The position numbers and the translations under genes are program-made. The notes beneath the pieces were generated by a model. The model was given only the letters and a program-made list of their open reading frames with translations, did not search any database and had not been told where the DNA came from. Positions 1 through 48,148 of a stretch of DNA of 64,000 nucleotides are shown one piece after another; position 1 is the stretch's first letter; every line of letters begins with the position of its first letter. This DNA is from Carpediemonas membranifera BICM (Eukaryota > Protista > Fornicata): NCBI GenBank assembly GCA_019828565.1, contig JAHDYR010000064.1:124001-188000 (forward strand), read 5' to 3'.

Positions 1-458
1 TCAAGGTCATGCACCAAGATGCGCTAGACAAAGTGTCAGCAACGACACCTATCTCGTCCGACTATGTGTTGGTCAAGTACCCGAATGGACCGCCGTCCAA
101 GTTGGCGTCAGGATGGCGAGGGCCTATGAAGCTAGTGCGTCCTATCGTGAGGCAGAACCTCACGGTGGGCTATGTCGTCAAGGATGTCAACACAAAGAAG
201 GAGTTCCAAGTCGCCTCGGAGAGAGTTCGCGCCTTTATGGGTGAGTTGTCCGAGCAACGGGCTCAGGAACTCGCGGCAGTCACGCTCGGTGAATATCTGG
301 TCGAGTCCATACTAGAGTCGACGAGTGAGGCCAGGATGAGAGACAGGAAGTTCCGGGTTAGATGGCTGGGATATGAGCCGTCAGAGGACACATGGGAACC
401 ATATGGGAATGTCAAGGGTTGTGAAGCACTGGATGTATTCCTGGGAAGGGCCAAGTAA
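1..458 (+). CDS. C-terminus of a Ty3/Gypsy Pol (integrase C-terminal region + chromodomain), truncated by the window edge; belongs to the outer (host) element
   Basis: KLASGWRGPMK (GPY/F-like motif), then a canonical chromodomain YLVESIL...FRVRWLGYEPSEDTWEP. Confidence 0.85.
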   Translation, partial: KVMHQDALDKVSATTPISSDYVLVKYPNGPPSKLASGWRGPMKLVRPIVRQNLTVGYVVKDVNTKKEFQVASERVRAFMGELSEQRAQELAAVTLGEYLVESILESTSEARMRDRKFRVRWLGYEPSEDTWEPYGNVKGCEALDVFLGRAK

Positions 459-487
459 ATGGCGCCCAGAGAGAGTCACAATCTGAT

Positions 488-1816
488 TTATTCAATGGCA
501 CCAAGGCTGTCACCAAGCTCAAAGAAGATGCCGTCATGCTCCCAGCGCCGACGAACACGACGCCATAAGTTATGCTCGTTGAGATAACGAGTGACAGGCA
601 TGGTGCGGCAAAGATCCTGGGTCAGGAAGGTCAGTGACGGCAGCGGATAGCCCGAAAACTGGACGAGCAGGATGAACGACTCCTCCTGGCGGGCGTTCTC
701 GTAGAGCTCGATGTGCTCTTTGACCTCCACCACACCGTACGCGGCGGACGTGTCCGTGAGCTGGAGCGTGAACAGCTCCTTGTTCATGGCAAGCTCCATA
801 GCCGGGAGATGCTCAAGCCGGACACAGGTCCAATAGGCCCGAACGAAGTCGCGGGAGCGGGTGGCGGTCAGGCGCGAGGCACCGCGGTTCTCAGCCGCCA
901 TAAGCAGCGAGAACATGGCTGGGTGTCGGCCTGCCATCACCACGCGCTTGAGGAGGTCCACCACCACATCACGAGAGACCGTGGCACCCGGCTCTCGAGT
1001 GCGCTTCAGCGCCAGGAGGGCTCCCTCAGCTGTGGCGACGTGGTTTGTGGCAAACCGGTCGCTCGTCCCGCCCTGGACCAGAGCCGCGGCTACGGCGCGA
1101 GTGTCTTGGACACCCTCCATGGAGCGCTGGAGAGCGCACCCGATGGCCGTCACCTCCGCGAACCGACGAAGGATGTCGGCAGAGACGTAAGCAGCCGTGA
1201 CCTCGGTCATAGCGCTGCCGAAGAGCTTCCCGGTCTGAACTCGGTCGAGGAGGGCTGTGAAATTGACTTCGAAGCAGTTGGAGAAGCGAGCAGTGCTGAT
1301 CTCCGCAAAGGTGGTGCGGAAGGTCTCGACCTGACGCTGCTCGCGTGCCGGAAGAGGTTCGGCGGGCTCGGTCGGCTCGGCGACGGTCACAATAGCCCTA
1401 GGGGTTTCGACATTGGCGCGGTAGCGGGTCTGTCGGTGGAATGGGCGGACAGGGACCTCTACGACACGCTGGTTGAACTCAGCGCCCAGCTCACTCGTGC
1501 GGGTGATTGTGGTCTGAGCAGATTCGGGATGGCAGTCGGTGATGTGCCGTCCGGAGCGTCGAGGTCGGAGAACGGTGCGATCGGGAGCTGAACCAGCTTC
1601 TTGGTGCGAAATGGCATCACCATCGGTGTTCTCAGCGGTGTTTTCAGTGGATGGAGGCGTGTGAGAACCTTCAGTAGCTTCCTGGGAGCCGTCACCATTC
1701 AGCAGCTCGACATGCTTTCGCTTCAAGGCCTGAAGATCGGAGATGAGCACACCAGTAGGATTGGCCGTCATATACTGGTCGATTGCAGCAAAGAGTTCCT
1801 CCTCTACGTTTGTCAT
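488..1816 (-). CDS. Antisense accessory ORF of the outer retroelement, with a degenerate C-terminal chromodomain-like region
   Basis: Long ORF (first ATG 1816) convergent with pol, 29 nt apart; C-terminus YGVVEVKEH...LLVQFSGYP...VTRYL resembles a chromodomain. Confidence 0.6.
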   Translation of the reverse strand: MTNVEEELFAAIDQYMTANPTGVLISDLQALKRKHVELLNGDGSQEATEGSHTPPSTENTAENTDGDAISHQEAGSAPDRTVLRPRRSGRHITDCHPESAQTTITRTSELGAEFNQRVVEVPVRPFHRQTRYRANVETPRAIVTVAEPTEPAEPLPAREQRQVETFRTTFAEISTARFSNCFEVNFTALLDRVQTGKLFGSAMTEVTAAYVSADILRRFAEVTAIGCALQRSMEGVQDTRAVAAALVQGGTSDRFATNHVATAEGALLALKRTREPGATVSRDVVVDLLKRVVMAGRHPAMFSLLMAAENRGASRLTATRSRDFVRAYWTCVRLEHLPAMELAMNKELFTLQLTDTSAAYGVVEVKEHIELYENARQEESFILLVQFSGYPLPSLTFLTQDLCRTMPVTRYLNEHNLWRRVRRRWEHDGIFFELGDSLGAIE

Positions 1817-2251
1817 AGCGCCGTTTGAAATCTGGGAGGCGTCCCAGATTTGATTTACATGTATACATGAGTTATATAATCTCAGGAGGACACCCACCGC
1901 GCAAGTTACAGACGCTGAGCACGCCTGTATAGCCAATACTGGCCAAGGGACAGCCGTTCACGTATTCTCTCGCGCGTTTTATGCCGAGACGAGATCTCGA
2001 GGAAAAGGGGAAGAAAACACCTCCAAGAAGTGATAATGGACAAAGTTTATACGAAGAACGTGGTTTTGATGTTGGTTATTCATGATGGAGCTCGTATTCT
2101 GGGCACAAGAAGTCCGAGCGGAGACGAAGAGAAGAAAACTCCCGTATCTCGCCAAGGAAGCGGAATTGGAGCTAGTTAACTGCATTTTTGAAGCCTATGT
2201 AAGAAATAGCGGAAGAGGAGCACAAACCGCCAACTATTCCGAATCAAGCCG

Positions 2252-2294
2252 TGTAGTCTCGGTCAGAGAAATCAATCAAGTGCAGTTTACCACA
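2252..2294 (-). repeat. 3' LTR (43 bp)
   Basis: tgtagtctcggtcagagaaatcaatcaagtgcagtttaccaca on + strand, identical to 6760-6802; imperfect terminal inverted repeat TGTRGT. Confidence 0.9.
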
Positions 2295-2303
2295 TCGCCC
2301 CCT
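2295..2303 (-). other. Polypurine tract of the nested chromovirus
   Basis: AGGGGGCGA on minus strand, running from the pol stop codon to the 3' LTR. Confidence 0.7.
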
Positions 2304-5300
2304 AGTGGCGAGAACGCCTAGCGTGTTGGACAAGGTAGTCCTGGCAGACCTTGTTGAAGTGGGCGTTTGAGTCACGATACTGGATAAACGCATCGTTGGT
2401 GAGGAGCTCAGTGATGGGTGCGTCTTGGTCCTCGTCGGCCTCGTAGCCGAGCCAACGCACCTGGCACATGGGCATGCCCGTGTCAGCGCGCTTGAACCAC
2501 TTGACGATGTGGTCGACGATCCCGTGGGGAGTGTCCTGGACGAAGTACTTGCGAGCTTCGTCGACCGTGAGGCGCTCCTGGAGCTTCGCCAGGCGACTGG
2601 CGTGCCTCTTGATAGTCTTGCCGGTGACAGGGTTCTCAAGGAGGTAGCCCTGGTCTTCGGTGGCGGCCCAAACCCGGTAGGGGCCACGCATCTTGAACTC
2701 GAGGCGAGGAACTGGGGCGTCGCGCTGCACGAGGACCCAGTCGCCGGGAGAAAGCTGGGAAGCGAGAGTGGGATAGAACCTGTCTTTCACCCCCTTCCTG
2801 GTGAGCTGAGCAGCTTTGATTGCAGCCATGGTGTGGATGGCACGGTCCATGGTCTCTTGGCTGACGCTCGATGTATCTGGGGCAGTCCTGGGCCCGTTCT
2901 TGACCTGGTGGTGGATGAGAGCCGCTGAAAAGGCGGCCTCGTGAGGCGTACGGCCACCGAGAGCAGCCGAAGGCGTAGAGTTGATGTTCAGCTCCGTCTG
3001 TTGCATGACGCTGCGCCATGTATGACGATTGTTGCCGTCGATCAGTGTAGAGATGCCAACACGTAGATGCCGGTTGATCTCACGGTTCTGGCGCTCAACA
3101 AGTCCGTTTGCTTCGTGTCGAAGAGGAGTAGTGTTATGGTGTACGATACCATACTGTGAGCAGAACTTAGAGAACTCGTGGTTGCAGAACTCCGATCCTG
3201 AATCGGTTTGAATAATGTCTGGGCATGCAAGTCTGGAGATGATGACGTCTTTGACCTGGTCAATAATTTCTCGCGGCTCCTTAGTGCGCAGGGGTATGAT
3301 TCGCGTGAGGCGAGTGCCAACATCGATGCATGTGAGGATGTATTTGAAGCCTTGGTCGGCCGGGTCGATAGGGCCTATGAGGTCCATGTGGACGACACAG
3401 AGCGGCGGTGCTGTCTGGATCATGCCTGGCGTGAACTGCACGTTCGTTCTGTTGGTCTGCTTAGCGCAGGTGACGCAATTCGTGACGTAACGTGAGACGT
3501 CCTCCCTGGCCCCGGGCCAAGAAAGTTCAGCGACATCTAGAAGGCGGAGCGTCGTCTCGACACCCGCGTGGTGTCTGTTATGGACGAAGAGGAAGCGCTC
3601 TTTCTTGAGCTGCTCGGGAAGGGACTCCATTAGTAGGGTCGGCACGCGCGAAAGGCCATCGGCCGCTGTGTTAGCGCAGCCGTCGACATGTACGAGCTCC
3701 GTGATGCTGTACTGGGCAACCTCCAGTGCCCAGCGGGCGACCTTTGGGGTCTCGGACCGGGCCATGAATGTGAGGTTGCGACTGTCGGTATGTAGTATGA
3801 TGTTCGAGCCCGCAAGGATTGAGCGAAAGCGCGACAGCGTGGACACGATGGCGAACATCTCCTGCTCGACGGTGGTCCATCGGGCCTCCGTATCAGAGAG
3901 CTTCTTGCTGTAAAAGGCGATCGGCCCCTTATCCTGGATAATTGAGGCGCCGATGCCCACGTTAGATGCGTCGGTATACACGTGGACGGGCTTGTCGGGC
4001 TGAAAGTGAGCGAGCTCAACTGCGTTGGCCGCTGCGGCCTTGAGGATCGACAATGAATTAGAGGCGTCATCGCTGGAGACGTGCTTCTTAGACGCGAGGT
4101 CCTGTAGGGGACGCGCCTTCTCAACGAAGTTGGGAATGAACTGGCGAATAAAGGAAAAGACACCCACGACATGCTTCGCGTCCTTGGAGGACTGCGGCAC
4201 GGGAAGGTCGGTGATGCCTTGTAGGCGCTTCGGGTCGATGCGGACCCCACTCCCTGAGACAATAAAGCCTAGGTATTCCACTTCCGAGGCCCCGATGATA
4301 GACTTGGTGGGTGACAGCCTAATGTTGGCTTCCGCGAGGGCGGCAAACAGCGACTCGACCTGGCCGAGCAACTCTTCTTCAGACGAAGCGTAGAGTAGAA
4401 TGTCGTCCACGAAGACCAAGCAGTGTGGAATGGGCTTCAGAAGGGTCTCCATGCGGGCCTGAAAGACCATGGGGCCATTGGTAACCCCAAACGGCAGCCG
4501 TGTGAACTGGAGGGTCTGACCTTGGTGGCTAAATGCCGTATACTTTCGGGAGGAGTCAGCCAAGGAGAGCTGAAAGAACCCAGATGTCAGGTCGAACTTC
4601 GCAAAGTGGGTCGCCCCTCGGACTTGCTCGAACAGTTCATCAGGACTGGGCATGCGATGCCATTCAGCCGTTGTCGCCTCATTGAGCTCTCTGAAGTCGA
4701 TGCAGAGTCTGTAAGGCGGGTCCGCACTGGGTTTCGGGACCATGAGGATAGGGCTCAGCCATCCTTCGTCCGTTGTGACTGTCGCGAGGATCCCAGCAGT
4801 AATCATCTGCGTGATGTAGAACGCTGCTGCAGCAGTGTGGGCAGCACTGCGAAGGCGTCGAACGGTCCTCACAGGGACGGCACTCTCGCGGATATGGATC
4901 TCGTACGGCGGAAGCTTGGCCGGCTCCTTGCCCAGCGGGCCAAAGATAAAGGCGAACGTCCCCAGCAAGAGCAGGAACTTGGCTCGTATGTCGCCAACCA
5001 CTCTGTCATGGACTTGTGGAAGGACCGCCGTCTCGTCGGGTGTAAAGAGATTAAGCATCTCTGAGGTGTTGGAGACGTCATGGAGGTGAGGAGGCTCCTC
5101 GGCGGTTACGGCGTTCGGCCCGAAATCCATTCCGGTGCGGCGGAGGAGGCTCTTCCCCAGGAGGCATGCGACGGGGAAGGTGTCGACAATGTGGGCTGTG
5201 ATGGTGATGGTCGTGGGGATCGGGAAGTAGTTCGGATCTATGAGGCGGAGCCTAAACGGCTCGGAGGGCTGCGCCTCGAGGGCTGTTGGTCCCTCGATGG

Positions 5301-5625
5301 CGTTGAGGACTACTGGGGAAGCCTTAGATTGCTTGATGCCCAGATACTGCGCGGCGTCCTTACGGATGATGAAGGGGAGTTGCTTGCCGCCGGTGTCCAT
5401 GTCCGCGACAATAGGCTTGCCTTCAACCTCGACGAGAGTGAGATAGTCGTCGCAGTCGGGGGGGATCTCCGTGGCTATGGGTGCCTGCGGGGACTGCATG
5501 AGTAGAGTCGTGCCCTGGGCGAGCTCCTTAAGCTTGCGTTCGTCGCGAATGCGCAGGGCCTCCTTGTGCTTGGTCTTATGCTTCTCGCTTGCTCTGAGGG
5601 AGGTGGATAAGTACTTGCTTGTCTG
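2302..5625 (-). CDS. pol: Pol polyprotein: aspartic protease, RT, RNase H, integrase, chromodomain
   Basis: DTG protease; RLCIDFRELN, LPFGV, FVDDIL (RT); TDAS...EMFAI...TDS (RNase H); H..HAG...CVTC, HMDLIGP, TDSGSEF, NGLVER (IN); RGPY; VRWLGY chromodomain. Frame is open from 5625; first ATG at 5499. Confidence 0.95.
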   Translation of the reverse strand, partial: QTSKYLSTSLRASEKHKTKHKEALRIRDERKLKELAQGTTLLMQSPQAPIATEIPPDCDDYLTLVEVEGKPIVADMDTGGKQLPFIIRKDAAQYLGIKQSKASPVVLNAIEGPTALEAQPSEPFRLRLIDPNYFPIPTTITITAHIVDTFPVACLLGKSLLRRTGMDFGPNAVTAEEPPHLHDVSNTSEMLNLFTPDETAVLPQVHDRVVGDIRAKFLLLLGTFAFIFGPLGKEPAKLPPYEIHIRESAVPVRTVRRLRSAAHTAAAAFYITQMITAGILATVTTDEGWLSPILMVPKPSADPPYRLCIDFRELNEATTAEWHRMPSPDELFEQVRGATHFAKFDLTSGFFQLSLADSSRKYTAFSHQGQTLQFTRLPFGVTNGPMVFQARMETLLKPIPHCLVFVDDILLYASSEEELLGQVESLFAALAEANIRLSPTKSIIGASEVEYLGFIVSGSGVRIDPKRLQGITDLPVPQSSKDAKHVVGVFSFIRQFIPNFVEKARPLQDLASKKHVSSDDASNSLSILKAAAANAVELAHFQPDKPVHVYTDASNVGIGASIIQDKGPIAFYSKKLSDTEARWTTVEQEMFAIVSTLSRFRSILAGSNIILHTDSRNLTFMARSETPKVARWALEVAQYSITELVHVDGCANTAADGLSRVPTLLMESLPEQLKKERFLFVHNRHHAGVETTLRLLDVAELSWPGAREDVSRYVTNCVTCAKQTNRTNVQFTPGMIQTAPPLCVVHMDLIGPIDPADQGFKYILTCIDVGTRLTRIIPLRTKEPREIIDQVKDVIISRLACPDIIQTDSGSEFCNHEFSKFCSQYGIVHHNTTPLRHEANGLVERQNREINRHLRVGISTLIDGNNRHTWRSVMQQTELNINSTPSAALGGRTPHEAAFSAALIHHQVKNGPRTAPDTSSVSQETMDRAIHTMAAIKAAQLTRKGVKDRFYPTLASQLSPGDWVLVQRDAPVPRLEFKMRGPYRVWAATEDQGYLLENPVTGKTIKRHASRLAKLQERLTVDEARKYFVQDTPHGIVDHIVKWFKRADTGMPMCQVRWLGYEADEDQDAPITELLTNDAFIQYRDSNAHFNKVCQDYLVQHARRSRH

Positions 5626-6739
5626 TTATCTTAGACGGGTCGGACGTGAGCTGCTTTAGGACCTCGCAGTCAGCGTTCGAGTGGCCACGCGTGAAGTGCC
5701 AGTCGCATGCTTTGTGCTTTGTCTCACGAGAGGCGTGAGGCTTCTCCTGCCTCTGAGGCTGGTGGTGCGGAGTGGCATCTTTGCTCTTAGAGGCGCCTGG
5801 CGTCTCTTCATGGTCGATGGTTGTGGCAGTAGTGACGTAGAATCGGTCATACTTACGGATCGACGTGTCAGCCTCGACCAGGGCGGTCCGGGCCGTTGCG
5901 ATAAGGTCGGTGAGTGTAGTGTCCTCTGAGGCTATGAGGTTGGACGATCCCTCGCCGAAGACTAGGGCACGACTCTCGGCGTTAGGGAAGTTCAGCCCAT
6001 TCATGAGGGTCTGCTTCAGGTCTCGCTGCACGTTCGAGTCGGCCCTATCTTCGTCCACAAGTGCCAGCCCGGCGATTCTGTCGTACTGCGCGACGTAGGC
6101 CAGCGCAGAGGCGATGGTGCTCGTCCTCGATGTCCCAACCACCACCTTGGGTAGAGCGCGGAGGTGGGATAGGCTCTCTTGCGTATGGGTGTGTAACACC
6201 AGCCTCATGTATGCTAGGGTGTTGTTCGCCTGTAGGGTGAGGGCTTCGATCCGCTTAGTGGTGTCGAGGAGCTTGGCGGGTCCTTCAGTCTTGACCGCTG
6301 CGGCCAGAGTAGAGGATTGAGCGAGGAGAGCGATCTTGTTCTTCCGGTGTTCAGCCACGTCTGCATTCGTATAACCAGCGGCTAGCATCTCGGCGATGAG
6401 GTCGTCTAATATCCGAACCTCGCGCTCAGTGGCGGCGAGCTTGTGCTCACTCTCGGATTGTGACACGGCCTGGCGGTGTCTAACTAGGTAAGGTTGCGTC
6501 TCGCTCGCAAGGTAGTCGAGGAATTGGTCGCTCGACACGAACTTGTGCTTAGTGCCATCAATGGCTTCATAAGTGTAGCTCGCAGTGATCAGAGTTTGGA
6601 GCATGCTGCGAACCTCTTCTCTGCTTAGGTAGGATACCAGTAAGTCGGGTTTCTCCCTTGATCGTAGAGTACCCTTGTAGTCGTCGATAAAATTCGACCA
6701 CGAGACGATACTTCGTCCCGGCGATGTAATTTGACTCAT
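5576..6739 (-). CDS. gag: Gag-like protein with a C-terminal Cys/His knuckle
   Basis: Upstream of pol; first ATG inside the element (MSQITSP) is 20 nt after the 5' LTR; motif C-x2-H-x4-H-x4-C (CDWHFTRGHSNADC). Confidence 0.8.
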   Translation of the reverse strand: MSQITSPGRSIVSWSNFIDDYKGTLRSREKPDLLVSYLSREEVRSMLQTLITASYTYEAIDGTKHKFVSSDQFLDYLASETQPYLVRHRQAVSQSESEHKLAATEREVRILDDLIAEMLAAGYTNADVAEHRKNKIALLAQSSTLAAAVKTEGPAKLLDTTKRIEALTLQANNTLAYMRLVLHTHTQESLSHLRALPKVVVGTSRTSTIASALAYVAQYDRIAGLALVDEDRADSNVQRDLKQTLMNGLNFPNAESRALVFGEGSSNLIASEDTTLTDLIATARTALVEADTSIRKYDRFYVTTATTIDHEETPGASKSKDATPHHQPQRQEKPHASRETKHKACDWHFTRGHSNADCEVLKQLTSDPSKITDKQVLIHLPQSKREA

Positions 6740-6759
6740 ATATGGACTGTAGAAGCTTC

Positions 6760-6802
6760 TGTAGTCTCGGTCAGAGAAATCAATCAAGTGCAGTTTACCA
6801 CA
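6760..6802 (-). repeat. 5' LTR (43 bp)
   Basis: Identical to 2252-2294; followed on + strand by the TSD AGCCG. Confidence 0.9.
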
Positions 6803-7248
6803 AGCCGAATGCATGACATAACCTGCACGGTTTGATGCAATCAGACAGAACACTGGTATGTATCGACTACTAGGAGGGGCAGGATCCCCAGGTAAGATAC
6901 CCATGACACAGCGCGCTTATTTAGTGGTACCACGAGTCTTTTCGAATCTGTAGAATCTTTGCGCAATCTAGAAAATCTTTAGAGAATTTCCGTGGGTGGA
7001 CTCCACGCCGGGCGATGGCTTAGGACGCTATGTCGTCAGCCTAGTCAACGGATACTATCCGGCGTACACGCAAGTCCCGTGTGCGCGACGGTCAGCCCTC
7101 TAAGTTGAACTTAGTTGGCATCCCCGGATCACTGGTCATTCCCCAGCGATCGACGGTTATAGGGTCAGCACTCTTGGGCTGTTCCCCCAAGACCTGATTA
7201 ACAATGGTATCCTTTTCGTGATGCTCTTAACAGAGCATGGGGGGGAAG

Positions 7249-7356
7249 TGTCAGCCATTTATATATGAGATACGTATTTGATACGGTCTTGATCCGTCCA
7301 GCTCGACACCCTTGTGTCGAGCTCTCTTTGTAAAGTCTTTTTCCTTAGTGATCACA
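7249..7356 (+). repeat. Putative 3' LTR of the outer element (end uncertain)
   Basis: Starts with TG right after the PPT; contains TATA-like TTTATATAT and hairpin agctcgacac/gtgtcgagct; candidate end ...GATCACA at 7356. Confidence 0.45.
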
Positions 7357-7818
7357 ACGGGATTTTCACGAAACGCGATCAGTGCAATTGCGACAGCTGG
7401 GAGCTGAAAAGCGGAAGATATGCCTGTAACAAGGATCTATAACACCTCCTGAAGTTAGACTGCTGATAGCTAGTCTCGTTGTCGAGTTCTGAGCTTGCAC
7501 AAAAAAGTTGAATCTGAATTTCACGGTCAATATTGACCTAGATCGCGAAAGTGAAGGTGTAAGAAAAGGCTAACTCACCAACGAGAGCAGCTAGAGGAAA
7601 ATGGTAAAGGGTTTTGCAATCTGCATCCCCTGAGGAGTTCAGTTTCACACAGATGAGGATTTGAGAAAGCTCCCCTTTCACAACGTCTTTGGGCACCTTC
7701 GACGGCATCGATAATGATGAAGCATACCATTAGCCCTTATAGTCTATGATACACATCTACTGTTGGCGAAATGTTCTGCAATGTTGTCATCGACGAGATA
7801 TGGTACCACATTTTTTAT

Positions 7819-7931
7819 ATCTCAAGATTGATGAAGTGCCCCATCTAGCCGAGCATATCCGGGTGCTGTATGAAGGTCATATAGCACCCCAGTATGGTTG
7901 GTTAGTTGGGGCACTTCACCAATCCCGAGAT
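7819..7931. repeat. Long imperfect inverted repeat (fold-back of about 113 nt)
   Basis: Left arm gattgatgaagtgcccca...gggtgctgtatga matches the reverse complement of the right arm at 39/48 positions; short loop. Confidence 0.8.
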
Positions 7932-8243
7932 CGTGTGATTGAATCAATAGAACCCAGCGACTGTGACATCGCTGAGAGCTGAAACCAAGAGAGGATGTAA
8001 AACAGTAGTACTGAGCTTGCTTACAGACCAGCTTGTCATGTCGACCACTTTTCACCAACTACATAAAATGCGTTTCCCTATTTACTCGCCGATGAGCAAA
8101 ATAATGCTCGACAACGATGTAAGATATGCGTTATTCATCTATAAAGCACCTGCTGTTGTATTTAAATCGGCTTCAGGGGTTCTAGTTTCGGATATCGCCA
8201 TTTTCACTTCCTCACGACTTCCTCAGGCATCGAAACCCCGTTT

Positions 8244-8482
8244 TTAACAGTATGGAAGCAGATCTACTGTCTCTCGGACGTTGCCGCCGGCAGTAAATGC
8301 GTCTTGAAGCTGTTGAACGGTGGCTTTGAGCTCTGCGATCTCTTGGGCGGCGTCTCCCATCTGTTTCAGTTCGCTCTTGAACAACTGAACCGCCCTTATG
8401 AGACGCACGATCCCGTCTTTGAGATCGTATCGAATCATCCTCGACCTCTCGCGCCGAAGTTTTGGCTCCGCTGGCCTTGCCA
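8244..8482 (-). pseudogene. Probable 5' remnant (terminus + gag start) of an older related YR retroelement
   Basis: KQMGDAAQEIAELKATVQQLQ echoes the neighbouring gag start EKMGDAQPPVTLESLEALV; terminus GGCAAGG resembles the element start GGCATAC. Confidence 0.4.
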
Positions 8483-8520
8483 CGACTTGCAGTCGACTAC
8501 GGTCGAAGTCTCCAATTGAT
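8483..8520 (-). repeat. Split direct repeat B2 (3' terminus)
   Basis: cgacttgcagtcgactacggtcgaagtctccaattgat, identical to 8798-8835. Confidence 0.9.
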
Positions 8521-8563
8521 TAGATCAAATTTATACCCGAGATTGATGGGAAACATGCTCTGA

Positions 8564-8835
8564 CCTCCAGGCTCTCCAGTGTCACGGGGGGCTGTGCGTC
8601 GCCCATCTTCTCGGAACTACCGGGGAATGGGGTTTTAACCCCTTGGTAAAATTGGTCTGAACTGGACCGTAGATTTGATTCGAATATTTGGTCAATATTC
8701 GATCTCTCTCGAATATTTGTACCAGATGGCCGGTAGTCCATCTGGGCCTGTACCACGCCCCGAGGCGTACTTACGCATCGCGTCTACGACGGTATGCCGA
8801 CTTGCAGTCGACTACGGTCGAAGTCTCCAATTGAT
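8564..8835 (-). repeat. Internal B1-A2 copy (mimics the circle junction)
   Basis: A2 (8564-8798) abuts B1 (8798-8835) at tatgcCgactt. Confidence 0.9.
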
Positions 8836-9200
8836 GTATCCCGCCATCATATAATAAAAATTTTCTCTTCAGAAATTATTTCTCTGGTCTCCTGTGCCTC
8901 CAAGCATGCCATTGATGCCCATCTCTCAGGCACATATTTTCACAGCCTGATAGTCATTCTTTGTGCGCGGTTTTGGCCATTTCCATTCGCCGGCATTTTC
9001 TCACTCTCTCCGGCCAATTCTTCGATAGTCTTCGATATATCGATCTTATTAACCATTAGTGACAATCTGCTGCGGTTTCTCCTTTCTCCCGCCTTCTCTT
9101 CTGCTCTCTATCATATCTTTAACTCTTACATGGCCTATTGTACAGTCTAATGGGGCCTTATGCAATCATATTCTATGTATTATCCGTCTTTCTCGTCCTT

Positions 9201-10400
9201 CTACACCCAAGCGCTCGTGGAGAGGCGCACGGCTTCACTGACGTAGGTCTGCATCGAGTCGAGCTGTTTCCAGCCCCCGATTGCTTGGATCACTGCTGGG
9301 GCTACACCTAGCTTCATCATGTGGACTGCGCCTCCTCTCCGGAATGAGTGGCCCGACGCGCGCAGCACCTCCTCTAGGTCCATGGACATCTCCCATCTTC
9401 TCCAAGGGTGGTCTCTGTTCATCAGGGAGGACCTGTTGTCCTTGATCAGCGCGTCCCTGGCCTCGAATGAGCGCCACAGGGGTCCTTCATCTGGGAGGTT
9501 TTCCATATGTCTCGCAAGCCAGTCTGCCGGGTTGTCGTCTCCGGGGACGTTAGGGACCAGCTTTAGCATGGGTTCATCCGATGTCTTGGAGCGTCGTATG
9601 GTGATGGTGATGTCCCTGCCGTGTCGTTCGACGTCTGATGTTGAGAGCCCCCGTATCTCCCCCGACCGAGATATTGTCGCGAACCCGACCAGCCCGAAAG
9701 CTATTGCTTGAGTCAATGCTGGTGTGGCGCTCTTGCCTGCTTGCACCGCGGCCTGTGACAGGGTCTCCCTGGCTATTGGCCATGCTTTCCCCTGTTCGAC
9801 GCTGGCTTGACGTTGGGCACCTTCCAGCCAATCTGCCACAAGCCTTGATCAGGGGCCCGGTGGAGTGGTGGGCATTCTATGGGTTCGCCCAATGCGGTCA
9901 TTCCATCTCTGATGTTTGCCTCCTTCGTTAGCAGTGAGTCTTTGGCGAGGAAGGGCACCTCCCCTATAATGAACCATAGCAGTGTGTCGTCATCATCCCC
10001 CGCGATTGCCACCTCCTCGAACTCTTGCACCCACTTCTGGTCATGGATTTTCTCGTGGGCTTGTCGTACGATCTCCCATGCAGCTTCCCGTGGGGTTGGT
10101 GCCGGGTCGTCATTTTGTCCGAGGTAGGCCTCGAAGTCCGAGTCATCTGGTTCTCTGGTCATGTTGCGGAAGAATGTGAACTTTGCGGTCTCTGTTGCAA
10201 TTCGATCACGCGTCACCTTCTCGAGGCGGAGCAGGAGCGGGCTGGACGCGACCTTTCTCTCGACGTCCTCGTTCTTAGGACGGCTAGCCCGGGACCATAT
10301 TATCTGCGTTCTGGTTCTGTCGGGTGTCACGCCTGCGGCTCTTAGTGCTCGGTGTCGCGCTTGCACTGCTGATGCTGATAGGAAGATTCCGAGGCTGACG
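9201..10400 (-). CDS. Tyrosine recombinase (catalytic domain 9201-9839; N-terminal part in another frame, frameshift near 9845-9850; start uncertain)
   Basis: Catalytic set SRSGE (R), SKT (K), GHSFRRG (H-x-x-R), GGW, MQTY (Y). Confidence 0.85.
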
Positions 10401-12346
10401 TCATCACCGGGACCCAGTACGCCCTGAAGGGAATGTGTGTCTTGCCCTCGAACAGTACCGCCAACTCCGTGTCTGCCCACCAGTGGGCTGGTAGCGATGC
10501 GTTGACTGTCTCCTGTGCGACTCGGATAAGGCGCAAGTCGATGTTCGTCTGCCTGACTGGGGCGATAACTAGGATTCCTGACTGTTGTTGACTGGGATGT
10601 CTCTCTTCTCGTTGGTCTACGATTGCCTCCAGTCGTTCGGCCACTCGGTCGAGCATGGCCACCGGGGGGACCGCCACTGACCGGCACTCTGTCCAGTTCG
10701 CTGTGAACGCGTCTCTGCAGTAGTCGTAGTCCTGGGGTAAGAACCTTTCGGCCGCGAACAGCGCTCGGTCCACTGCTCCCCACCTCTCTATCGCAGCTGC
10801 CAGCAGGGCCGCTGGCATGGCCCAATCGAGCTTCTTGTACCTCGACAGAGCATCGGCCGTTGTGTTGAATACACCTGCGATATGTTTGACTCTCAAGCGG
10901 CAACCGTTGGCATGCAGGAAGTCGTGTAGGTCGGCGATCTCCCGGCGAATGTGGGCTGGGGCCTTCGTCGAACTCTTCGCAACCCACGCGAGTGACGAGG
11001 TGTTGTCTCCCGCGATCAGGACATCTCTGTCTCGGATCACATGTGCCCAGTGTCGCAGCGCCGTGGTTATGGCCCTCGTCTCTTTGCAGTTGATCGACTT
11101 GTGTATGAATGACTGCTTGAACCGGCCCTGGATCTCCATCCTCTCGCTGTCTGTCCATATTGTCGCGCCGTAAGCTACGTCCGAGGCGTCTGTCTCGACC
11201 CTGATCTCCGGTCGCGGTGACCCCTGCATTGCGTACTGCGGGTCTGTCGCGATCACACGCGCCCACCATCTGAGGTCTGTGCGGGCGTCTCGGGGCATGG
11301 AGGCTCTCGTAAATCGCTGACTCGGCGCAGTCACCATTAACTGGAGTTCTCTCAGTCGAGGAAGCGTTCTTGCTCCTACTGCGAATCTGGCGAAAAGGAG
11401 TTTGCCAATGAGTCGCTGGAGTTCTATCTTCGTTGTTCTTCGTTCTTTGAGCACCTGATCGATCATTCTTCTCAGCTCCACGCGCTTGTCGTTCGGAAGA
11501 GACATTGTGTTCTTGCGCGTATCGATAACTATTCCCAGGTACTCGATTCGTCGTGTCGGTGTAAGAACGCACTTGTTTCTCGAGATTATCATTCCTAGCC
11601 GCTCCATTATCTTCAGGACTTCGGGCATCTTTCGTGCTAGCTCTTGCTGTGATGGGTCGGCGAACAACAGGTCGTCTAGGTAGACGAACACTGTGAGAGA
11701 GCTCTCGGCGGATGATCTTCGCCGCCTGCGCCGTGATCGATTGAAATGCTTCCGGGGCCGTGTTGAGGCCGAAAGGAAGCGCGTTCCAGCGGTACGTGTT
11801 CCCTTCGTGCTGGAAGCCTAGCCATTTCCGACCCGTCTGTTCGACCAGGACTTGGTAATATCCGCTCTTCAGGTCCACGCTGGCGAGCCACGCCCCCTTG
11901 GTCAGTGCATTCGCTATCTCGGTCAATCCCTTCAGTCGGAATCGCCTGGTTGTCTGGTACCAGTTCACCGGCCTCAGGTCGTGGATGAGGCGCCAGTCTA
12001 TGTGGTTCTTCTTCAGCGTCATGAAGATTGGGCAGACTTGCGCTACCTCTGTCGGTGCACACTGCTCCACTGCTTGCAGCTCCATTAGCTCGTTGATTGT
12101 GTCTGTGATCGGGCCCTGTGACCCGTTGGGCGACGAGTTCGTCGTCTGCCCGTCCTGTACTGGGACTCCCTGCCGGAGTAAGTCCACGACGCTCGTGCTG
12201 GCCCCCATGGCCTCCCACTCTTTCCACGCTCGACTCATTGAGCCAACCACGTGTGTCCGTTGACCTGGACCAGAGACGGGCTGAGCGTCGGACAATAGGT
12301 GCCATGTGTCCTGGCTTGTTTCGCTTCTTGCTTGCTCTTGTGACAT
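10342..12346 (-). CDS. pol: DIRS-type Pol: RT + RNase H + Dam-like methyltransferase domain; frameshift near 11695-11705
   Basis: WRLIHDLR, VDLKSGY, LPFGL in one frame; VYLDDLL, YLGI, TDAS, INCKE, DN, N.TADALSR and LFAA...DAFTANW...VPP...LVIAP in the next frame. Confidence 0.88.
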
Positions 12347-12415
12347 TCTTCTCTGTATTCAAAACGTAGACGGTGCCTTTTTATATCTGAGGATGGCATA
12401 ACCTCACTTGGGCAA

Positions 12416-12934
12416 CTACTGCTGCCCCGGGGCCGCATTGCGGTTGCCCGAGGCTTTCTGGAATCTGTGGTTGTTGTATCCGTGGTTTCGGAAGGGACGC
12501 TTGGCGAACCGGTGTGATGTGTGAGCCCGCGTGGCAGGGATGGCCTTCTTGGCCTTGGCGGCGACCTTGACGAGGTCCTTGACGTTGGATATGTCCTCGG
12601 CGGTGACGATAAAGTAGGCGGCCGCTTCTTCGTTGGCAGAGTCGAGGACTCGGAGGAACTCGAGGCGCTTTTCAACGGCAAGATTAATGGCTGTGGTTAT
12701 GTCAGCAATCGTCTCCTTGCTGGGGTCAGCCAGGATTGACTTGATTTCTCCATGTAGGGCGCGCAGGTGTTGGAATTCTTTGAGCACTGCTGGGATTTTG
12801 GTGGGTTTGCGTACATCCTCAGCATTCGTGCGGACATCGTCAAGATTCTCGCTCAGTGATGCTATTGTAGCAGCCTGTGACCGCACCAGGGCCTCCAGGC
12901 TCTCCAGTGTCACGGGGGGCTGTGCGTCGCCCAT
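12416..12934 (-). CDS. gag: Gag-like ORF1 of the YR retroelement
   Basis: First ORF of the element; ATG (MGDAQPP) lies within repeat A1; coiled-coil N-terminus and basic C-terminus. Confidence 0.7.
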   Translation of the reverse strand: MGDAQPPVTLESLEALVRSQAATIASLSENLDDVRTNAEDVRKPTKIPAVLKEFQHLRALHGEIKSILADPSKETIADITTAINLAVEKRLEFLRVLDSANEEAAAYFIVTAEDISNVKDLVKVAAKAKKAIPATRAHTSHRFAKRPFRNHGYNNHRFQKASGNRNAAPGQQ

Positions 12935-13126
12935 CTTCTCGGAACTACCGGGGAATGGGGTTTTAACCCCTTGGTAAAATTGGTCTGAACTGGACCGTAG
13001 ATTTGATTCGAATATTTGGTCAATATTCGATCTCTCTCGAATATTTGTACCAGATGGCCGGTAGTCCATCTGGGCCTGTACCACGCCCCGAGGCGTACTT
13101 ACGCATCGCGTCTACGACGGTATGCC
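12892..13126 (-). repeat. Split direct repeat A1 (5' terminus)
   Basis: 235 bp matching 8564-8798; contains several hairpins (tcgaatatt/aatattcga; ccagatgg/ccatctgg; ggggtt/aacccc). Confidence 0.9.
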
Positions 13127-13128
13127 AT

Positions 13129-13201
13129 CCGATCATAGCTCAGTTGGCAGAGCATGGGACTGTAGATCCTGGGGTCGCTGGTTCAAATCCGGCTGATCGG
13201 A
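13129..13201 (+). tRNA. tRNA-Tyr (GTA), intronless
   Basis: Acceptor CCGATCA/TGATCGG + A discriminator, A-box TAGCTCAGTTGG, anticodon loop CTGTAGA, T-loop GTTCAAATC. Confidence 0.95.
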
Positions 13202-13202
13202 G

Positions 13203-13207
13203 TTTTT
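13203..13207 (+). terminator. Pol III terminator (T5)
   Basis: TTTTT 2 nt after the tRNA 3' end. Confidence 0.75.
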
Positions 13208-13720
13208 GTCATCAACCTTAAACTGCTCGTGGCTAAACTGCGTTACTCATTTAATCGAAATGAGACGGAACCCCCCGTCAAACTTCTCCAGCGGACTATA
13301 CTCTGTTGGTAATACGTGCCTTCTTGCCCTAGATGACTGGATATTCAGACAGTGAGGCGGACAATGAGCGAGCTGACATCGTTTGCCCAGCATGGCTCCG
13401 ATTGAACATACAATCTATCAAATTTCCACGCGTTGTTGACAGCTTGGTAATAAGGTACTAGGCGTATGCCAAGAATCTCGCTCAGCTACTGCGGTCGACG
13501 TGGCGATTTCGTTCTGTGGCATGACTCAACCCGCCACAGTCATAGCCGATAAAATCAGCCCGACCCACCTTGATCGCTGCCGACGATACTTATAGCACTC
13601 ATCTGACTCACCACACTCAATATCATTGACACCGACTGCATTGTCTGAACTCATGAAAGCGATGGCCCAAACTCACGAGGACGGCTGTGAACCACGGCCA
13701 GCCCCGTCATTTATTTCGAC

Positions 13721-16700
13721 TCAGATAACAGATGTAGGAAGCGGGACGTTACTAACAACGGCGTACTCCTCGCCGTATTCAGTGTCCCGCCTTGCATGAG
13801 TGATGCAGCTGCAAACTCTACAACCAAACAGCTCCCAGCCTTGCTTGACCCCGACCATATGTGCCGCCATCCCACTTGTGGAGATCGTCGTGATAAGCTC
13901 GGTGGATCTCACCCAGTTGGAGGTGACCTCATTGCCGAACGTCCAAAGTAGCGTGTCACAGGGCCAACCGTATAGCACCGTAAGCTTCTTGATGTACGCC
14001 GAGCAGGAAAGCGTCGGACATGCTGATGGCTCTCCCGTACACGAGCAGCTTAAGACGGGCGATGGATCATGGACAACGAAGAACACCTTGCCGCAAAGAC
14101 ATTGGAACTTCGCATCTCCATGGGTGTTGTTGTGATCTGCCCGAGCACGCTGGTGGTCCCAGAGGAGGAGGAACCGAGTGATGGGCGGTGAGGGGAAGAC
14201 TGTCAGCCGAAGCCGGCGGAGTTGAAGCATGGCGTGGTAGGCGCTGTAGCTCTTGGTGTCCATCAGATAGGCCATAGCGAGGGCTGCGGCCATCGAGGGC
14301 TGGTCGACTCGACCGTAGAGTAAGGTTCGACCCGACCGGGCAAGACCACCTCTGATAAAGTCGAAGACATCCTCTAGAGCCAGGATATAGCCCTGCTTGG
14401 CGGTTCCCACAGTGTTAAAAGTGTGCACAAAGTCACGCTCAAAGCGTTCACCCTGGAGCACGATGCCTGACGGTCCATCAACTGGCCTTAGGTCCATGAT
14501 CCCGTTCGCCAGCTGTCTAAACAGCGGAGACAGCTCATGGTGGAGGATGTCTTGGCACGGGTTTGGTTCAGTCGAGCAGTTTATGCACCGAGTCACCCCT
14601 AAACTGCGGAGAAAGTCGGCGTCTGTGGCCATGGAAATATCGGCGATACAGAGGTGCGGGGTGACGTGAGTGACTATGTGGCTGTACGATAGCTTGAGGT
14701 TGTCTGGGTGGTCTGGGTTCCTATCTCGGGAGGGGCGGGGAAGTCCGTAAGGAATGGGGATGTCCACGTCGAGCACGTATGAAGGGAGTTGGAGCTCGCC
14801 GATGAGAGTGTTAGTCATCCTTGCGAGCTCTGTGATGGGCGGACGTTGTGTGGGCGATCGAACGAGCACAGCGCGTAGGAACTGCTCGATCGCGGGACAC
14901 GTACTGATCTTCGCGAGTTTGTCGGGTGGCAATACGTCGTCAGTGCCAGTTACTCGGATATAGAACCTGACCCAGTCGTCATCGTAGTACAGGTACTCGC
15001 AGGTTAGGAGCTCGAAGAGGAGGCACGCAAGGCTCCAGACGTCGGCGGGCTGACCGGCCCCAGCCTTGCGGCGGCGGTCGAAGTTTGTCCGTTTCTTGGA
15101 TGCACCAAGCATCTCGGGAGCCTTGATGTACTCCGTGCCGCGGTTTCTCGTCGTAATACCGTCCTCTTCCTCGGTAAAAAGCTTAGACTCGCCAAAGTCG
15201 CCTACTGCCACACTGAATGGGAGGTCGACCGTTGGCCGATCGTCCATTAGAATGTTGTCGCACTTGAGATCAAAGTGGTTGACACCGCGAAGGGCGAGCT
15301 CGCGGCAGGCTTTGATGATGTCGCGATAAGTCATCAGATACAGTAAAAGATCTGGCATAAAATTCGGATCGCGTTTCTCACGCCAGGATCTGACAGAAGA
15401 TGCGTATCTTCTCATAACCACCCAATATCTATCCAATGTCACACCATAATCGTAGAGCTGACACACTGACTTGGACCCTCGGAATGTCTCCATGATCGCA
15501 ATCTCACTAAATATATCGTGTAGCACAGATCTCTCATAAATAGATTCAGGCATCTCCATCAGCTTCACGGCGACTTCGCTCGGGTTCGCAACCACAAGCG
15601 TAGGATCGTCATTGAACGGCCGCACATCTGCGACGTACACTGAGCCGTATGCGCCTTCCCCAATGAGCCGCATCGAGTGGTAAGCTGCGGGGGAGAAAAG
15701 CTGTCTGCACAAGAGTTTGAGGAGCCTGACCTGCCCCGGCCCGCCTTGCTGGGCCCGATCGAGAAGCTCGGGGAGAATATCAGCGTTGGCGTCGTTATTG
15801 AGATGATGGTGTAGTAAATGAGGAATGTTGATGCCGAGATTATCCATCGGGAACTGTGTGGTGTAGGAAGACTCAAGGGTGCCTGTCTTAGTGACAAGAC
15901 AAGTAAGAACCATGTCAAGGATTGTGACATGGAGTCTGGAGTCACTGTAGACGCGTCTGTAGCCCCTGAGGCGGGTGTACTCGGCCGTACGGCTGGCCTC
16001 GTCTTCTGTCTTGGCCTTATCCTGCTCGGAATCGCCCAGAGTTGAGTCGGTGGAGTCGGGCCGGGTCTGATTGGGTTCAGTGACGTTATCCTGCCCCTTC
16101 TGAGCGACTCTGTTGAGGTCGAGAGTGAGAGACATCGGCGACCCGCCAAAGTCGGGGGTTGAGTCGGAGCCTCCCTTCTTGGGGACGAGTCCGAGGTCTA
16201 GAGTCAGCCCCAGGCCGGGCAGAGGGCTCGAGGATGGTGCGGAATCGTCCTCATCATCTGATGATATGACCGGTGTGACTTGGAGCGAGTCAAGACCGTC
16301 GCCCTCGCCTTTCCTCGGGACCGTTGAGAGGTTGAGAGAAAGCGTGGGCGGGGGCACCGCGAGCTCCATCGCTGCGGCGAGCGGAGAATTGACTCCCTGG
16401 ACGTTGGCCTTGGGTCGAGCCCCGCCGCTGTCACAACGCCGGCTCCGCTCGCCCGCTTCTTTCTTGGCACGGGCTCGTGCGGCCATCTTGCGGCTTCCCA
16501 TGGTGTCCTTTCGTAGACAATCGTGTTCGAGGCCACATTCTCGCACCAAGAACTCGACCACGCGGAGCTGCTTGAACCGGGACTTTGCAGCGGGCACATG
16601 GTGCCGGGCGATCGCCAGTAGAACTGATAAATGAGCGGTAATCAATTGATTAACGGCGGAGCTCGGGTCGACTGAAGTGTAGAGTTGGACGAAAAGAAGA

Positions 16701-31843: not shown

Positions 31844-32938
31844 GAAGAAGAAGATGTGTGTAGAAGAAGAAAAAACCTCTTGGAGGTTAAAACTGTGCGG
31901 CATCGTGACAATGCCAACGTAACTCCAACCGAGTCGAAAAAATATGAGCAGTTCTATCCGCCGTAATGGGCGGGAGGGACATGACACCGCCACGAGAAAG
32001 ACACAGAGAGCGTATGGGTCTTCCTCTAAAGTGCGTGCGACTGATGAGTCGATTATGGTCGCCTCGCCGCTCATAAGTACAGCCTGTACTGTCCATGGAC
32101 GATCGGTGGGAGTTGGGGGAGTAGATTCATTGCTCGCTGTCTGGTGTGTTGCCAGTGGGCCTCCACGGGGCATGGCATGGAAGATCGAGACCTTTGCGAC
32201 ACTATCAATGAATCTGAAGAAGATACAAGAACAACTTATACGTCATATGGCATAATAGACGGGTAATCGTGGCATCTGCGCTCGATCCCGCCGACAATGA
32301 GCGCCTTGTTGGTGATAGAAGCAAAACTGAAACAGGATTAAAGCAAAACAGTTCTAGAGAGCATATTATTTCGAATAGATGCTCAAAATCACAGTAGCAT
32401 ACCCTCTACATGTCTCTAGTCCGAGTTCAATGCCATGCTTTCAATGCGACTCCACTGGAGTCACGACCGCCACAAACACAGTATTCAGACCTCTCCCGCG
32501 GACCAGCCCTGTTGCACACTGTTCGCTAGCCTCATTAAGCGATTTCCACGATTTTCAAGAATCGCCGACAGCTTTTACTGGGAGTGACAACCATGACATT
32601 GTTTTCCCGGACCAAGCGGTCATGGTCTCAATCTACAAACTGCGCACCTAACGTGCGTATATTCTTCGCCTAAGTCCATACCAGGCTTGAATTTGGGTCA
32701 ATATCGCCTGAAGCCAGTTGATCCTCTTCAAATCATTCGACTGAGGAGGGGCAATCTGAGTGTTTGGAGGGCTGTAGCCCGAGGCACTGCCTGTAGCAAG
32801 ATAGAGCTTGACTAGATAAAGACATTAGGCGTTGGACAATCACCGGAATGCATCTTGGTGATCCGATTTCGATCGCAAAAGATTTGATGGCCTCATCTTG
32901 CTGTCATCCAAACAATAATTCCGACAGTGCGTGTAATT

Positions 32939-35900: not shown

Positions 35901-36672
35901 CCTCGTCTCGCTGCTCCTCACTCAGCACGGTGTCTTCTCCTCCGCCGCCGGCTACATCGGCCCTAAACTGCGCGTTGACCACGACTTCTCGCTGATGATG
36001 CCCGAGCTCTTCTGCCGTATGACCGAGGAGGAGCGCGAGCCGGGCTATCTGCTCGAACACGGCTTCCTTGAGAAGCTCGAGGACTTCGAGTACAACGGCA
36101 AGGAGGTCCTCGCCTCCCGCCTGGGCTTCCGCGTCACCCGCAAGTTCATCACGCACTTCTTTGGCCGCATCTTCGACACCCCCGACGCCCTCTTCGATGA
36201 CGAGCACCTCAAGCCCGAGATGCAGGGTCTCGACGACTACGTCAACGGCATCGAAGCCATCGTCAACGCCCAGCGCGTGACTGCCGAGCGCTACTTCCGC
36301 GACGGCGCCATCGAGAACGCCTGTCCGCCCCTCCGCGCCGTTCTTGAGTGTGCCGCGCACGGTCACTACGAGGGCAAGCCCATCACCCACCCCGACATCC
36401 GCGCCATGTTCACCCGCGAGGCCCTCGTCAAGTCCGAATGGTACCAGCAGCGTCTCAAGACCAAGCGGGATCGCGACATCAACCGCGCGGCCAAGTTCAT
36501 CGGCTACATGACCGAGCTCTCCTCCCGCACCCGCGTGGCTGATTCTCTGCGTCGGAGAGTGAACCTTGACGATCGTATGGCGCGCGCCCACCAAATGCTG
36601 GATGAGTTCCGCGACCCCGCGTATCTTGAGCATCTGTTTGGCACTATTGGCGCTGATCCCATCACCAAGTAA
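32939..36672 (+). CDS. PPi-type phosphoenolpyruvate carboxykinase, 3 exons (introns 34136-34169 and 34653-34680)
   Basis: KQGVLHNP.NDRRTTKGVFHI.EGG.PIP.DK; splicing restores DNYFGYSK|KEVKT and the P-loop SGGGK|SEISKS; SPSTTG.G.EGALTKGPFN; strong C-ending codon bias. Confidence 0.9.
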
Positions 36673-38612: not shown

Positions 38613-38824
38613 TGTTGTGCAGTTTGGCACTTTGATCGTTCCTTACAGGCCCTGTCTGGGATGTTCGAACAATGTGTTTACTATATTGCTAAATTCAGGG
38701 AAAATCGACCACTGTTCAGATTTTTATGAGCTGAATTAAGTAAAAACAGATGAATTTTTAGCTAAAATCAACCGTTTTAAGCGCTTAATTCGGTTGATTT
38801 TCGCTCAAAAGTCAGCTTTGCGCA

Positions 38825-39799: not shown

Positions 39800-39808
39800 A
39801 CGCTTTAT

Positions 39809-40540: not shown

Positions 40541-40699
40541 CGCTCAATTCACCTGTTTTCAGCACTCAAAACACAGTGTTTGATTGCTTAATTCAGGACT
40601 CAAAATAAACAAGCTCGTGGTTGATTTAAGGTGAAAAAAGCAATATTATTGTTTTTATTATTATACTGCGCAACAGGGAGAATGTGACAGGACAAACGA

Positions 40700-44816: not shown

Positions 44817-45006
44817 TACAGTGCTTCCGAAATCCTCTCGATATTACCTTGACCAATCGAGACACCCATATCTCACCCTAGCTGACCCCCCTGCCTCGCT
44901 GTACTGCACTGCTGCTCTTGCGTCGCCTGACCAGTTTTGCCAGATTTGACACTGCGAAGTACGAAGATGAGCCAGATGCGAACTTCATGCAGAAACGCAA
45001 AAACCC

Positions 45007-46917: not shown

Positions 46918-47024
46918 ATACAGAATCGGATTTGTAAATATGCGTCATGGCGGCTTGGGCGTTAAGTGATGCAGACGGACCTGTAATGGCAGGGTATAAT
47001 AATAAGTTGTTTTAAAGTTTAAAA

Positions 47025-48110: not shown

Positions 48111-48148
48111 TTTCGCAAGAGGCGTGGGTTCGAGTCCGAGTAGTGACA
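48111..48148 (+). pseudogene. 3' half of a tRNA-Leu/Ser-like sequence
   Basis: Variable-arm-like TTCGCAAGAG, GCGTGGGTTCGAGTCC (B-box), 3' TAGTGACA; T-stem broken and 5' half absent. Confidence 0.4.

Follow-up and report, generated by a model that had tools for sequence, protein, structure and literature searches.

In this work, a Ty3/gypsy long terminal repeat (LTR) retrotransposon with LTRs of only 43 bp was analysed in a 64,000-nucleotide stretch of the Carpediemonas membranifera BICM genome (contig JAHDYR010000064.1, positions 124,001 to 188,000 of the forward strand; this whole stretch is called the window and its first letter is position 1). The element is 4.55 kb long and lies on the minus strand. 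From its 5' to its 3' side it shows the following features, where TSD is the target-site duplication, PBS the primer-binding site, PPT the polypurine tract, and PR, RT, RH and IN are protease, reverse transcriptase, RNase H and integrase.

6803-6807 (no strand): TSD AGCCG, 5' side of the element
6760-6802 (minus): 5' LTR, 43 bp, TG...CA
6793-6799 (minus): GGTAAAC, LTR nt 4-10, putative polyA signal of the host type, upstream of the mapped 5' end
6789 (minus): cDNA 5' end at LTR nt 14 (C/A boundary), from a related interrupted copy; probable transcription start
6751-6760 (minus): 10-nt palindrome made of the last LTR base and nine leader bases, where a PBS is missing
6744-6753 (minus): 10 nt complementary to the anticodon arm of tRNA-Tyr(GTA), from 6 nt past the LTR end; candidate half-tRNA primer site
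5576-6739 (minus): gag, 387 aa, Cx2Hx4Hx4C knuckle at aa 345-358
2302-5625 (minus): pol frame, 1107 aa, PR-RT-RH-IN(HHCC, DDE, GPY)-chromo-like, +1 to gag with a 50-nt overlap
2365-2529 (minus): diverged chromodomain-like tail, limits approximate
2295-2303 (minus): PPT-like tract AGGGGGCGA over the pol stop
2252-2294 (minus): 3' LTR, 43 bp, same sequence as the 5' LTR; polyA-signal motif 12 nt past the last base of the pol stop
2247-2251 (no strand): TSD AGCCG, 3' side of the element

The two direct repeats are identical and read TG...CA on the minus strand. With up to three mismatches allowed, the 43-bp repeat has just these two matches across the window, and any match at all was obtained in 0 of 100 shuffles. 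AGCCG borders both outer flanks; the probability of a 5-bp TSD by chance is p ~0.001 and that of TG..CA ends ~0.004. The gag ATG at 6739 is separated from the 5' LTR by a 20-nt leader, and at the other end the tract AGGGGGCGA (9 nt, of which 8 are purines) overlaps the pol stop and adjoins the 3' LTR. With its TG..CA direct repeats and a TSD in the 4-6 bp range, its gag and ordered pol, and its PPT, the element is a Ty3/gypsy LTR retrotransposon. An earlier note on this DNA had claimed two identical 43-bp TG...CA LTRs with a perfect 5-bp TSD, a gag ATG 20 nt from the 5' LTR, a PPT running from the pol stop and an integrase-type insertion. The repeat scan and the shuffles bear out the LTRs, the TSD, the ATG and the 9-nt purine-rich tract were all confirmed, and the TG..CA ends together with the 5-bp TSD agree with the action of an integrase. 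Two features go beyond that note, namely the absence of a canonical TGG PBS and the position of pol in the +1 frame with a 50-nt gag overlap.

The gag frame (6739-5576) encodes 387 aa, and the pol frame (5625-2302) runs over 1107 aa from stop to stop without an internal stop. Pfam matches in pol were RVT_1, RT_RNaseH, Integrase_H2C2 and rve, and the catalytic motifs of RT, RH and IN are all present. The Pfam protease match is weak (E 0.011, below the cut-off), although the DTG motif is nonetheless present. The uninterrupted pol in the order PR-RT-RH-IN, as first described, is thus upheld by Pfam and the catalytic motifs, with PR as its weak part. The closest structure to pol in the Protein Data Bank (PDB) was Ty3 Gag-Pol (E 4e-62). 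For gag, the homologue search gave no sequence match at E 0.01; its nearest clusters in a feature-based comparison carry zf-CCHC or Retrotrans_gag (score up to 0.92), and its knuckle is of the CHHC type. The top match of pol is J8273_2268 of Carpediemonas membranifera, 99.1% identical over 566 aa, while the remaining matches are at most 35% identical. Because J8273_2268 differs from pol by one substitution, a 2-aa gap and a frameshift, it is, judged from these differences, another copy or another assembly version of the element.

The C-terminal tail of pol required several lines of evidence. Pfam did not match a chromodomain in it, even at E 5. The tail aligns with the Pfam-positive chromodomain tail of a neighbouring element (E 4e-7), and a profile built with 12 of 24 chromo-bearing matches gives it 14.4 bits, where the best of 1000 shuffles reached 6.8. 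A PDB sequence search with the tail gave only weak MPP8 chromodomain matches (E 0.58), ranked under unrelated matches. The fold predicted from the single sequence was poor (predicted local distance difference test, pLDDT, 42), and the model from 19 alignment rows reached pLDDT 91. This model resembles Ty3 integrase and the HP1/MPP8 chromodomains with a template-modelling score, TM(target), of 0.80, a root-mean-square deviation of 1.7 A and a best Foldseek E of 0.018; the alignment consisted of chromo-bearing rows, which biases the model, and no structural match had E <0.001. The aromatic cage of group I chromodomains is incomplete, as the first aromatic residue is gone and the W and Y of VRWLGY are retained, at positions which we take to be those of the HP1 cage. 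The tryptophan of WEP is missing as well. The tail is therefore supported only as a diverged chromo-like domain. The chromo domain of the earlier note holds in this weaker form, from the profile, the neighbour's tail and the model, but not as a Pfam match.

An RT phylogeny, proposed in the same note, was built from RT-RH with 106 of 120 matches (14 rows of short coverage dropped) and then with a 55-row set. In both trees the element is a long branch outside a fungal/fish chromovirus group with 98/95 support, a group that was named after the first tree in trees that lack Tf1, Skipper and plant references. In the first tree the element joined unnamed chromo-bearing elements weakly (SH-aLRT 81), and in the second it was in no starred set. 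Forcing it into the fungal/fish group made the log-likelihood (lnL) 36.7 units worse, with an approximately unbiased test value (p-AU) of 0.092, so that rejection was not reached. Of the name chromovirus, the chromo-like integrase tail stands, but the RT lies outside the sampled fungal/fish clade. The element may work like a chromodomain-bearing gypsy element; its membership in the chromovirus clade is unproven.

Other copies of the element were found among contigs of three cDNA runs. In all three runs, a contig with 1-2 differences starts at 2397-2400, takes in the end of pol, the PPT and the complete 3' LTR and reaches 2251, and the same contigs continue past 2251 into a flank absent from the window. 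They represent a second insertion whose 3' LTR has the same 43 bp and whose outer boundary agrees to within 1 nt; one end of this insertion is seen. Because this second copy shares the 3' end but is flanked differently, the 43-bp LTR is supported as a family trait and not a one-off deletion. The short-LTR lineage postulated earlier is thereby borne out, and of the expected copies with the same ends one is seen at its 3' end, where it has the same boundary and a new flank. One of these contigs carries a polyA tail at about 2397, 9 nt past a cryptic TAAA on the antisense side of pol, so this second copy (2251-2400) is transcribed antisense from a neighbouring gene. The contigs cover only the ends of the element, and the uncovered part (2401-6488) gives no evidence either way. 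A recent insertion, as the note had it, is plausible from the intact frames and the copies identical to ~99%, but the 0 differences over 43 bp bound the LTR divergence only to <6.7%.

The 5' end of the RNA is placed by another contig, again present in all three runs, which spans 6489-6789, shows 3 differences over these 301 nt and ends at 6789, i.e., LTR nt 14. In two of the three runs, a 24-nt tag is attached at this end, and the same tag marks host cDNA ends. As a control for host starts, the same runs were aligned to 44500-64000, and the figures refer to the ends listed there. Six host loci had such an end (four with the tag listed, two inferred from a 23-25 nt unaligned start), and in five of these six an ORF (open reading frame) of at least 168 aa on the same strand had its ATG 23-48 nt further on, the ends being mostly at a C/A boundary. 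The LTR 5' end is at a C/A boundary as well, 50 nt before the gag ATG. Because this context and the distance to the ATG match host starts, the end at LTR nt 14 resembles an ordinary host start. On the other side, the transcribed copy leaves the element at 6489 and enters sequence absent from the window, which starts with TGTG on the element strand and is possibly another element inserted in gag, or else the mark of a deletion derivative.

The host polyA signal was calibrated on 21 of 44 long ORFs taken as real genes. In 19 of these 21 genes, TAAA lay no more than 70 nt from the stop, compared with 10.7% of 5000 random windows, and the four polyA junctions seen lie 8, 9, 9 and 9-12 nt past a TAAA. 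Host genes in 13700-64000 have a TAAA-core signal that often overlaps the stop, leaders of 23-48 nt and C/A starts. AGTAAA and TAAA are reported as polyA signals in Giardia and Trichomonas (PMC3916229; this and the other papers are cited for the passages covered), and Giardia core promoters are short (PMC1885649). On the sense strand of the element, TAAA occurs at LTR nt 6-9 in both LTRs and once in gag. From these data, we predict an LTR map in which U3 measures 13 nt, R ~4-8 nt and U5 ~22-26 nt and in which TAAA would act only at the 3' end. This is the boldest step of the analysis.

The 20-nt leader is without TGG and thus has no canonical PBS for a tRNA 3' end, and very probably something other than a tRNA 3' end primes the minus strand. 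Self-priming of the Tf1 type was rejected, as the longest complementarity between leader and LTR is 4 nt. The last A of the LTR and nine leader bases form a 10-nt palindrome, one of only three of that size in the element (rate in the window 0.0011 per centre), and its geometry is like that of GalEa CHSeq1, with the last A of the LTR included. The full GalEa hairpin is unsupported, since the 7 of 9 pairs are reached by 31% of random windows. Overlapping with the palindrome, leader nt 7-16 can pair with the anticodon arm of a tRNA encoded in the window:

13128-13202 (plus): tRNA-Tyr(GTA) gene, used in the primer test

A match of 10 nt was reached in 12 of 20000 leader shuffles; this test used a single tRNA, picked after the resemblance had been noticed, and 6 nt lie between the LTR end and the site. 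Rfam found only tRNA over 1-14000, and no case of a half-tRNA primer in Ty3/gypsy was found in the literature searched. We tentatively put first a mechanism that uses the palindrome abutting the LTR, as proposed for the hairpin site of fungal GalEa. Some other primer is conceivable with slightly less confidence, and half tRNA-Tyr appears rather unlikely. Part of the leader presumably resembles a common small-RNA library adapter. An adapter artefact was rejected, as the cDNA contigs cross the leader into gag with the 3 differences in 301 nt given above.

The locus holds an intact Ty3/gypsy element, likely still autonomous. We hypothesize that its 43-bp LTR has been pared down to the ends needed by the integrase, a polyA signal of the host type and a start resembling an initiator, and we regard it as probable that the element works in this way. 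RNA polymerase II would start at LTR nt 14, at an initiator-like C/A boundary as in host genes, which gives a 13-nt U3 and a 50-nt leader; this step is proposed with good confidence. TAAA at nt 6-9 would then lie in U3, be absent from the RNA 5' end and act in the 3' LTR only, with cleavage 8-12 nt later, so that R would measure ~4-8 nt and U5 ~22-26 nt. The balance leans only slightly towards this second step, and the productive RNA may instead start further upstream. Pol would rather probably arise from a +1 frameshift within the 50 nt that the two frames share, the alternative being a start at the Met of pol codon 43. The integrase would insert the cDNA with a 5-bp duplication, and the diverged chromo-like tail may steer insertion to repeat-rich chromatin; here the element appears to lie inside the 3' part of another gypsy element.

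That putative outer element is represented in the window by two features:

3-458 (plus): IN-chromodomain end of a second Ty3/gypsy element, the putative outer element (Pfam Chromo, E 7e-9)
7249-7395 (plus): putative 147-bp 3' LTR of the outer element, TGTC..GACA, with TATATA and TGTAAA

A PPT-like run at 7239-7248 precedes the putative 147-bp LTR; the 5' LTR of the outer element is not in the window, so this LTR is unconfirmed. The short-LTR element seems to be nested antisense in the 3' part of a gypsy element with an ordinary LTR. An ORF on the minus strand (488-1957) follows the outer pol on the opposite strand, and its paralogue J8273_6937 of C. membranifera is 31% identical. Further along the window, a tyrosine-recombinase (DIRS/Ngaro-like) retroelement with 235-bp identical direct repeats and a 38-bp split repeat occupies 8564-13126. 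It stops 1-2 bp short of the tRNA-Tyr gene at 13128, a possible sign that tRNA genes are targeted. A large gene at 32888-36672 extends over three overlapping frames, probably with short introns, and presumably encodes a pyrophosphate-type phosphoenolpyruvate carboxykinase. At 38748-38817 there is a palindromic repeat beside the ORF 38798-39799 (region 38748-40543), which we take from its motifs to be a DDE/Tc1-like transposase.

Several points weigh against the proposed mode of action. The cDNA evidence consists of contigs from three small runs of one sample, whose RNA status was guessed by a tool and is supported by polyA tails, and no contig of these runs spans the junctions of the locus 2247-6807. 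The evidence for copies consists of the cDNA contigs and J8273_2268. The transcribed copy is interrupted at 6489, so it is perhaps a defective one whose flank drives its transcription. Nor does the tag mark gene starts alone, since it was also seen antisense in the DIRS/Ngaro-like element (11426), before an ORF of only 40 aa, and at one gene with two ends 9 nt apart. The depletion of TAAA in pol is not significant (0 against a mean of 2.4, P 0.054). The predicted R rests on a host-calibrated 3' end, the element's own 3' end not being among the contigs, and its 4-8 nt are below the shortest cited values, which are 10 nt in Sire and 11 nt in MMTV (PMC3601003). Tf2 makes non-productive RNAs from a downstream start (PMC5341516), and the second half of a GalEa-type hairpin would lie at a distance of 35 nt here, with pairing no better than that of many random windows.

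The strongest alternative is that the LTR has no promoter of its own and that productive RNA arises by read-through from promoters of the flanking host sequence or of the outer element and includes most of the LTR, which would make R longer, with the nt-14 start being minor or non-productive. We consider this unlikely. It would fit an element with only 13 bp of its own upstream of nt 14, and a start seen in an interrupted copy whose flank is not in the window. Furthermore, Giardia transcribes promiscuously from loose AT-rich patches (PMC1885649), Tf2 uses alternative starts (PMC5341516), and an R of 4-8 nt would be hard for strand transfer. However, the nt-14 end shares its C/A context and leader length with host starts, and an RNA from upstream of nt 6 would carry TAAA at its 5' end. 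Sense read-through from the outer element, as the earlier note had suggested, is not favoured because the pol of this putative element runs on the opposite strand. The other suggestion made there, a very small or internal promoter, is supported by the cDNA 5' end at LTR nt 14.

It is very unlikely that the 43-mers are remnants of a longer LTR that suffered a deletion in one progenitor; both ends would then have taken over this deletion, and a few copies, perhaps a dead-end sub-lineage, would have inherited it. In favour of such remnants, the LTR of the neighbouring gypsy element looks conventional, with 147 bp and a TATA-like box, and no close relative from another species was found in the searches of metagenome and viral contigs or with the alignment, which were not genome-wide. 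The exact 43-bp LTR was not found in metagenome contigs, nor was a 29-nt part of it in viral contigs. The search with pol in metagenome contigs gave one distant 2.4-kb locus, protein P0010 had no match in viral contigs, an integrase homologue search gave three weak matches, and the alignment query returned 40 + 3 distant pol loci with 24-38% identity. Among 22 distant loci of at least 3 kb, five had repeats, all at or near contig ends, and a bounded LTR pair occurred in none; these repeats are most likely assembly overlaps or partial LTRs. The 40 Ty3/gypsy-like pol loci lie in contigs binned to prokaryotic metagenome-assembled genomes and are probably mis-binned eukaryotic retroelements. Against a remnant, the TG and CA ends, TSD, PPT, polyA-like motif and start site are all kept, both frames are intact, and the second copy has the same 3' LTR and boundary. 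An assembly artefact or chance repeats, for which the lack of a read across the junctions at the locus could speak, is hardly credible in view of the shuffles, the chance values of the TSD and TG..CA ends, and the independent cDNA contigs, in which the 3' LTR again adjoins the end of pol and the leader again adjoins gag.

With an LTR that works in reduced form as the preferred reading, a protein-intact element sets a near-minimum LTR size and offers a natural test of how small LTRs can get. The mapped 5' end and the host-calibrated polyA signal give a testable U3/R/U5 map, and two questions are opened to test, namely how much R homology strand transfer needs and how gypsy elements without a PBS are primed. 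In its most far-reaching form, which is rather doubtful as a whole, this would be an active gypsy lineage whose 13-nt U3 holds nothing but the polyA signal and the att end, whose R measures ~4-5 nt (below any R found cited) and whose U5 is short, primed without a tRNA 3' end via the palindrome or half tRNA-Tyr, and with a nearly homology-free minus-strand transfer. Common LTR finders have a default minimum of 100 bp. Families with short LTRs would be under-annotated if these programs require longer LTRs.

In the literature searched, which left most subscription papers and Repbase outside, neither this element nor LTR elements of Carpediemonas were described, and the words 'LTR', 'retrotranspos' and 'transposable' are absent from the main text of the C. 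membranifera genome paper in the passages covered (PMC8516963). Known chromodomain elements share part of its organization. Skipper of dictyostelids is likewise a protist Ty3/gypsy element that contains ORFs for gag and pol, carries a chromodomain at the C-terminus (in diverged form in Skipper-2) and lacks a canonical TGG PBS, but it has a polypyrimidine stretch after the LTR and a CCHC knuckle in place of the palindrome/tRNA-Tyr match and the CHHC knuckle found here (PMC5006619). Tf1, sushi and Tcn1 are also chromodomain-bearing Ty3/gypsy elements without a tRNA-type PBS; they self-prime via pairing of the PBS with the RNA 5' end, whereas the leader of our element matches the LTR over 4 nt (PMC6317226). 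In GalEa, a 9-nt sequence after the 5' LTR, palindromic with the last A of the LTR, replaces the PBS as it may do here, but GalEa belongs to Ty1/copia and has a conserved complementary CHSeq2 12-41 nt downstream, a second half that is unsupported in our element (PMC5445492). Copia, Ty5, Osser, Bryco and Bianca, which are primed by half tRNAs, resemble it in a leader complementary to a tRNA anticodon arm. These Ty1/copia elements use Met or Ile tRNA, whereas the match here is in a gypsy element, to Tyr and 6 nt off the LTR end (PMC5371799, PMC6317226). In a plant survey, half-tRNA primers were exclusive to copia (PMC6317226).

Regarding size, SMART FRetro129 of grasses has short LTRs (85 bp), TGT..ACA ends and a 5-bp TSD like our element, but it is non-autonomous, 292 bp long and has an LTR twice as long; its 85 bp are the shortest LTR discussed in the main texts covered (PMC3281118). 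For the microsporidian Anncaliia algerae, Supplementary Table S1 of Parisot et al. (2014, PMC4202319) lists complete gypsy consensus elements whose LTRs measure 45 bp in retro S, 50 bp in retro L, and 73 and 90 bp in further ones, and the shortness of these LTRs is not discussed in the passages of the main text covered. The uniqueness of ultra-short LTRs was thus overstated in the earlier note, since gypsy elements with 45- and 50-bp LTRs were already in print (PMC4202319), and shortness alone is not unprecedented. The 43 bp are at the known floor rather than far below it. Retro S, retro L and our element are all complete gypsy elements with LTRs of 43-50 bp, but the Anncaliia elements have a single ORF and 3.1-3.8 kb, compared with the 4.55 kb, separate gag and pol and chromo-like tail described here (PMC4202319). 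What is new is a protist, non-microsporidian case that combines separate gag and pol frames with a protease motif and a chromo-like tail; in addition, a 5' end is mapped inside the LTR, R is predicted to be tiny, and a canonical primer site is missing. Together with the microsporidian cases of 45-50 bp, it suggests that LTR shrinkage recurs in hosts with compact promoters.

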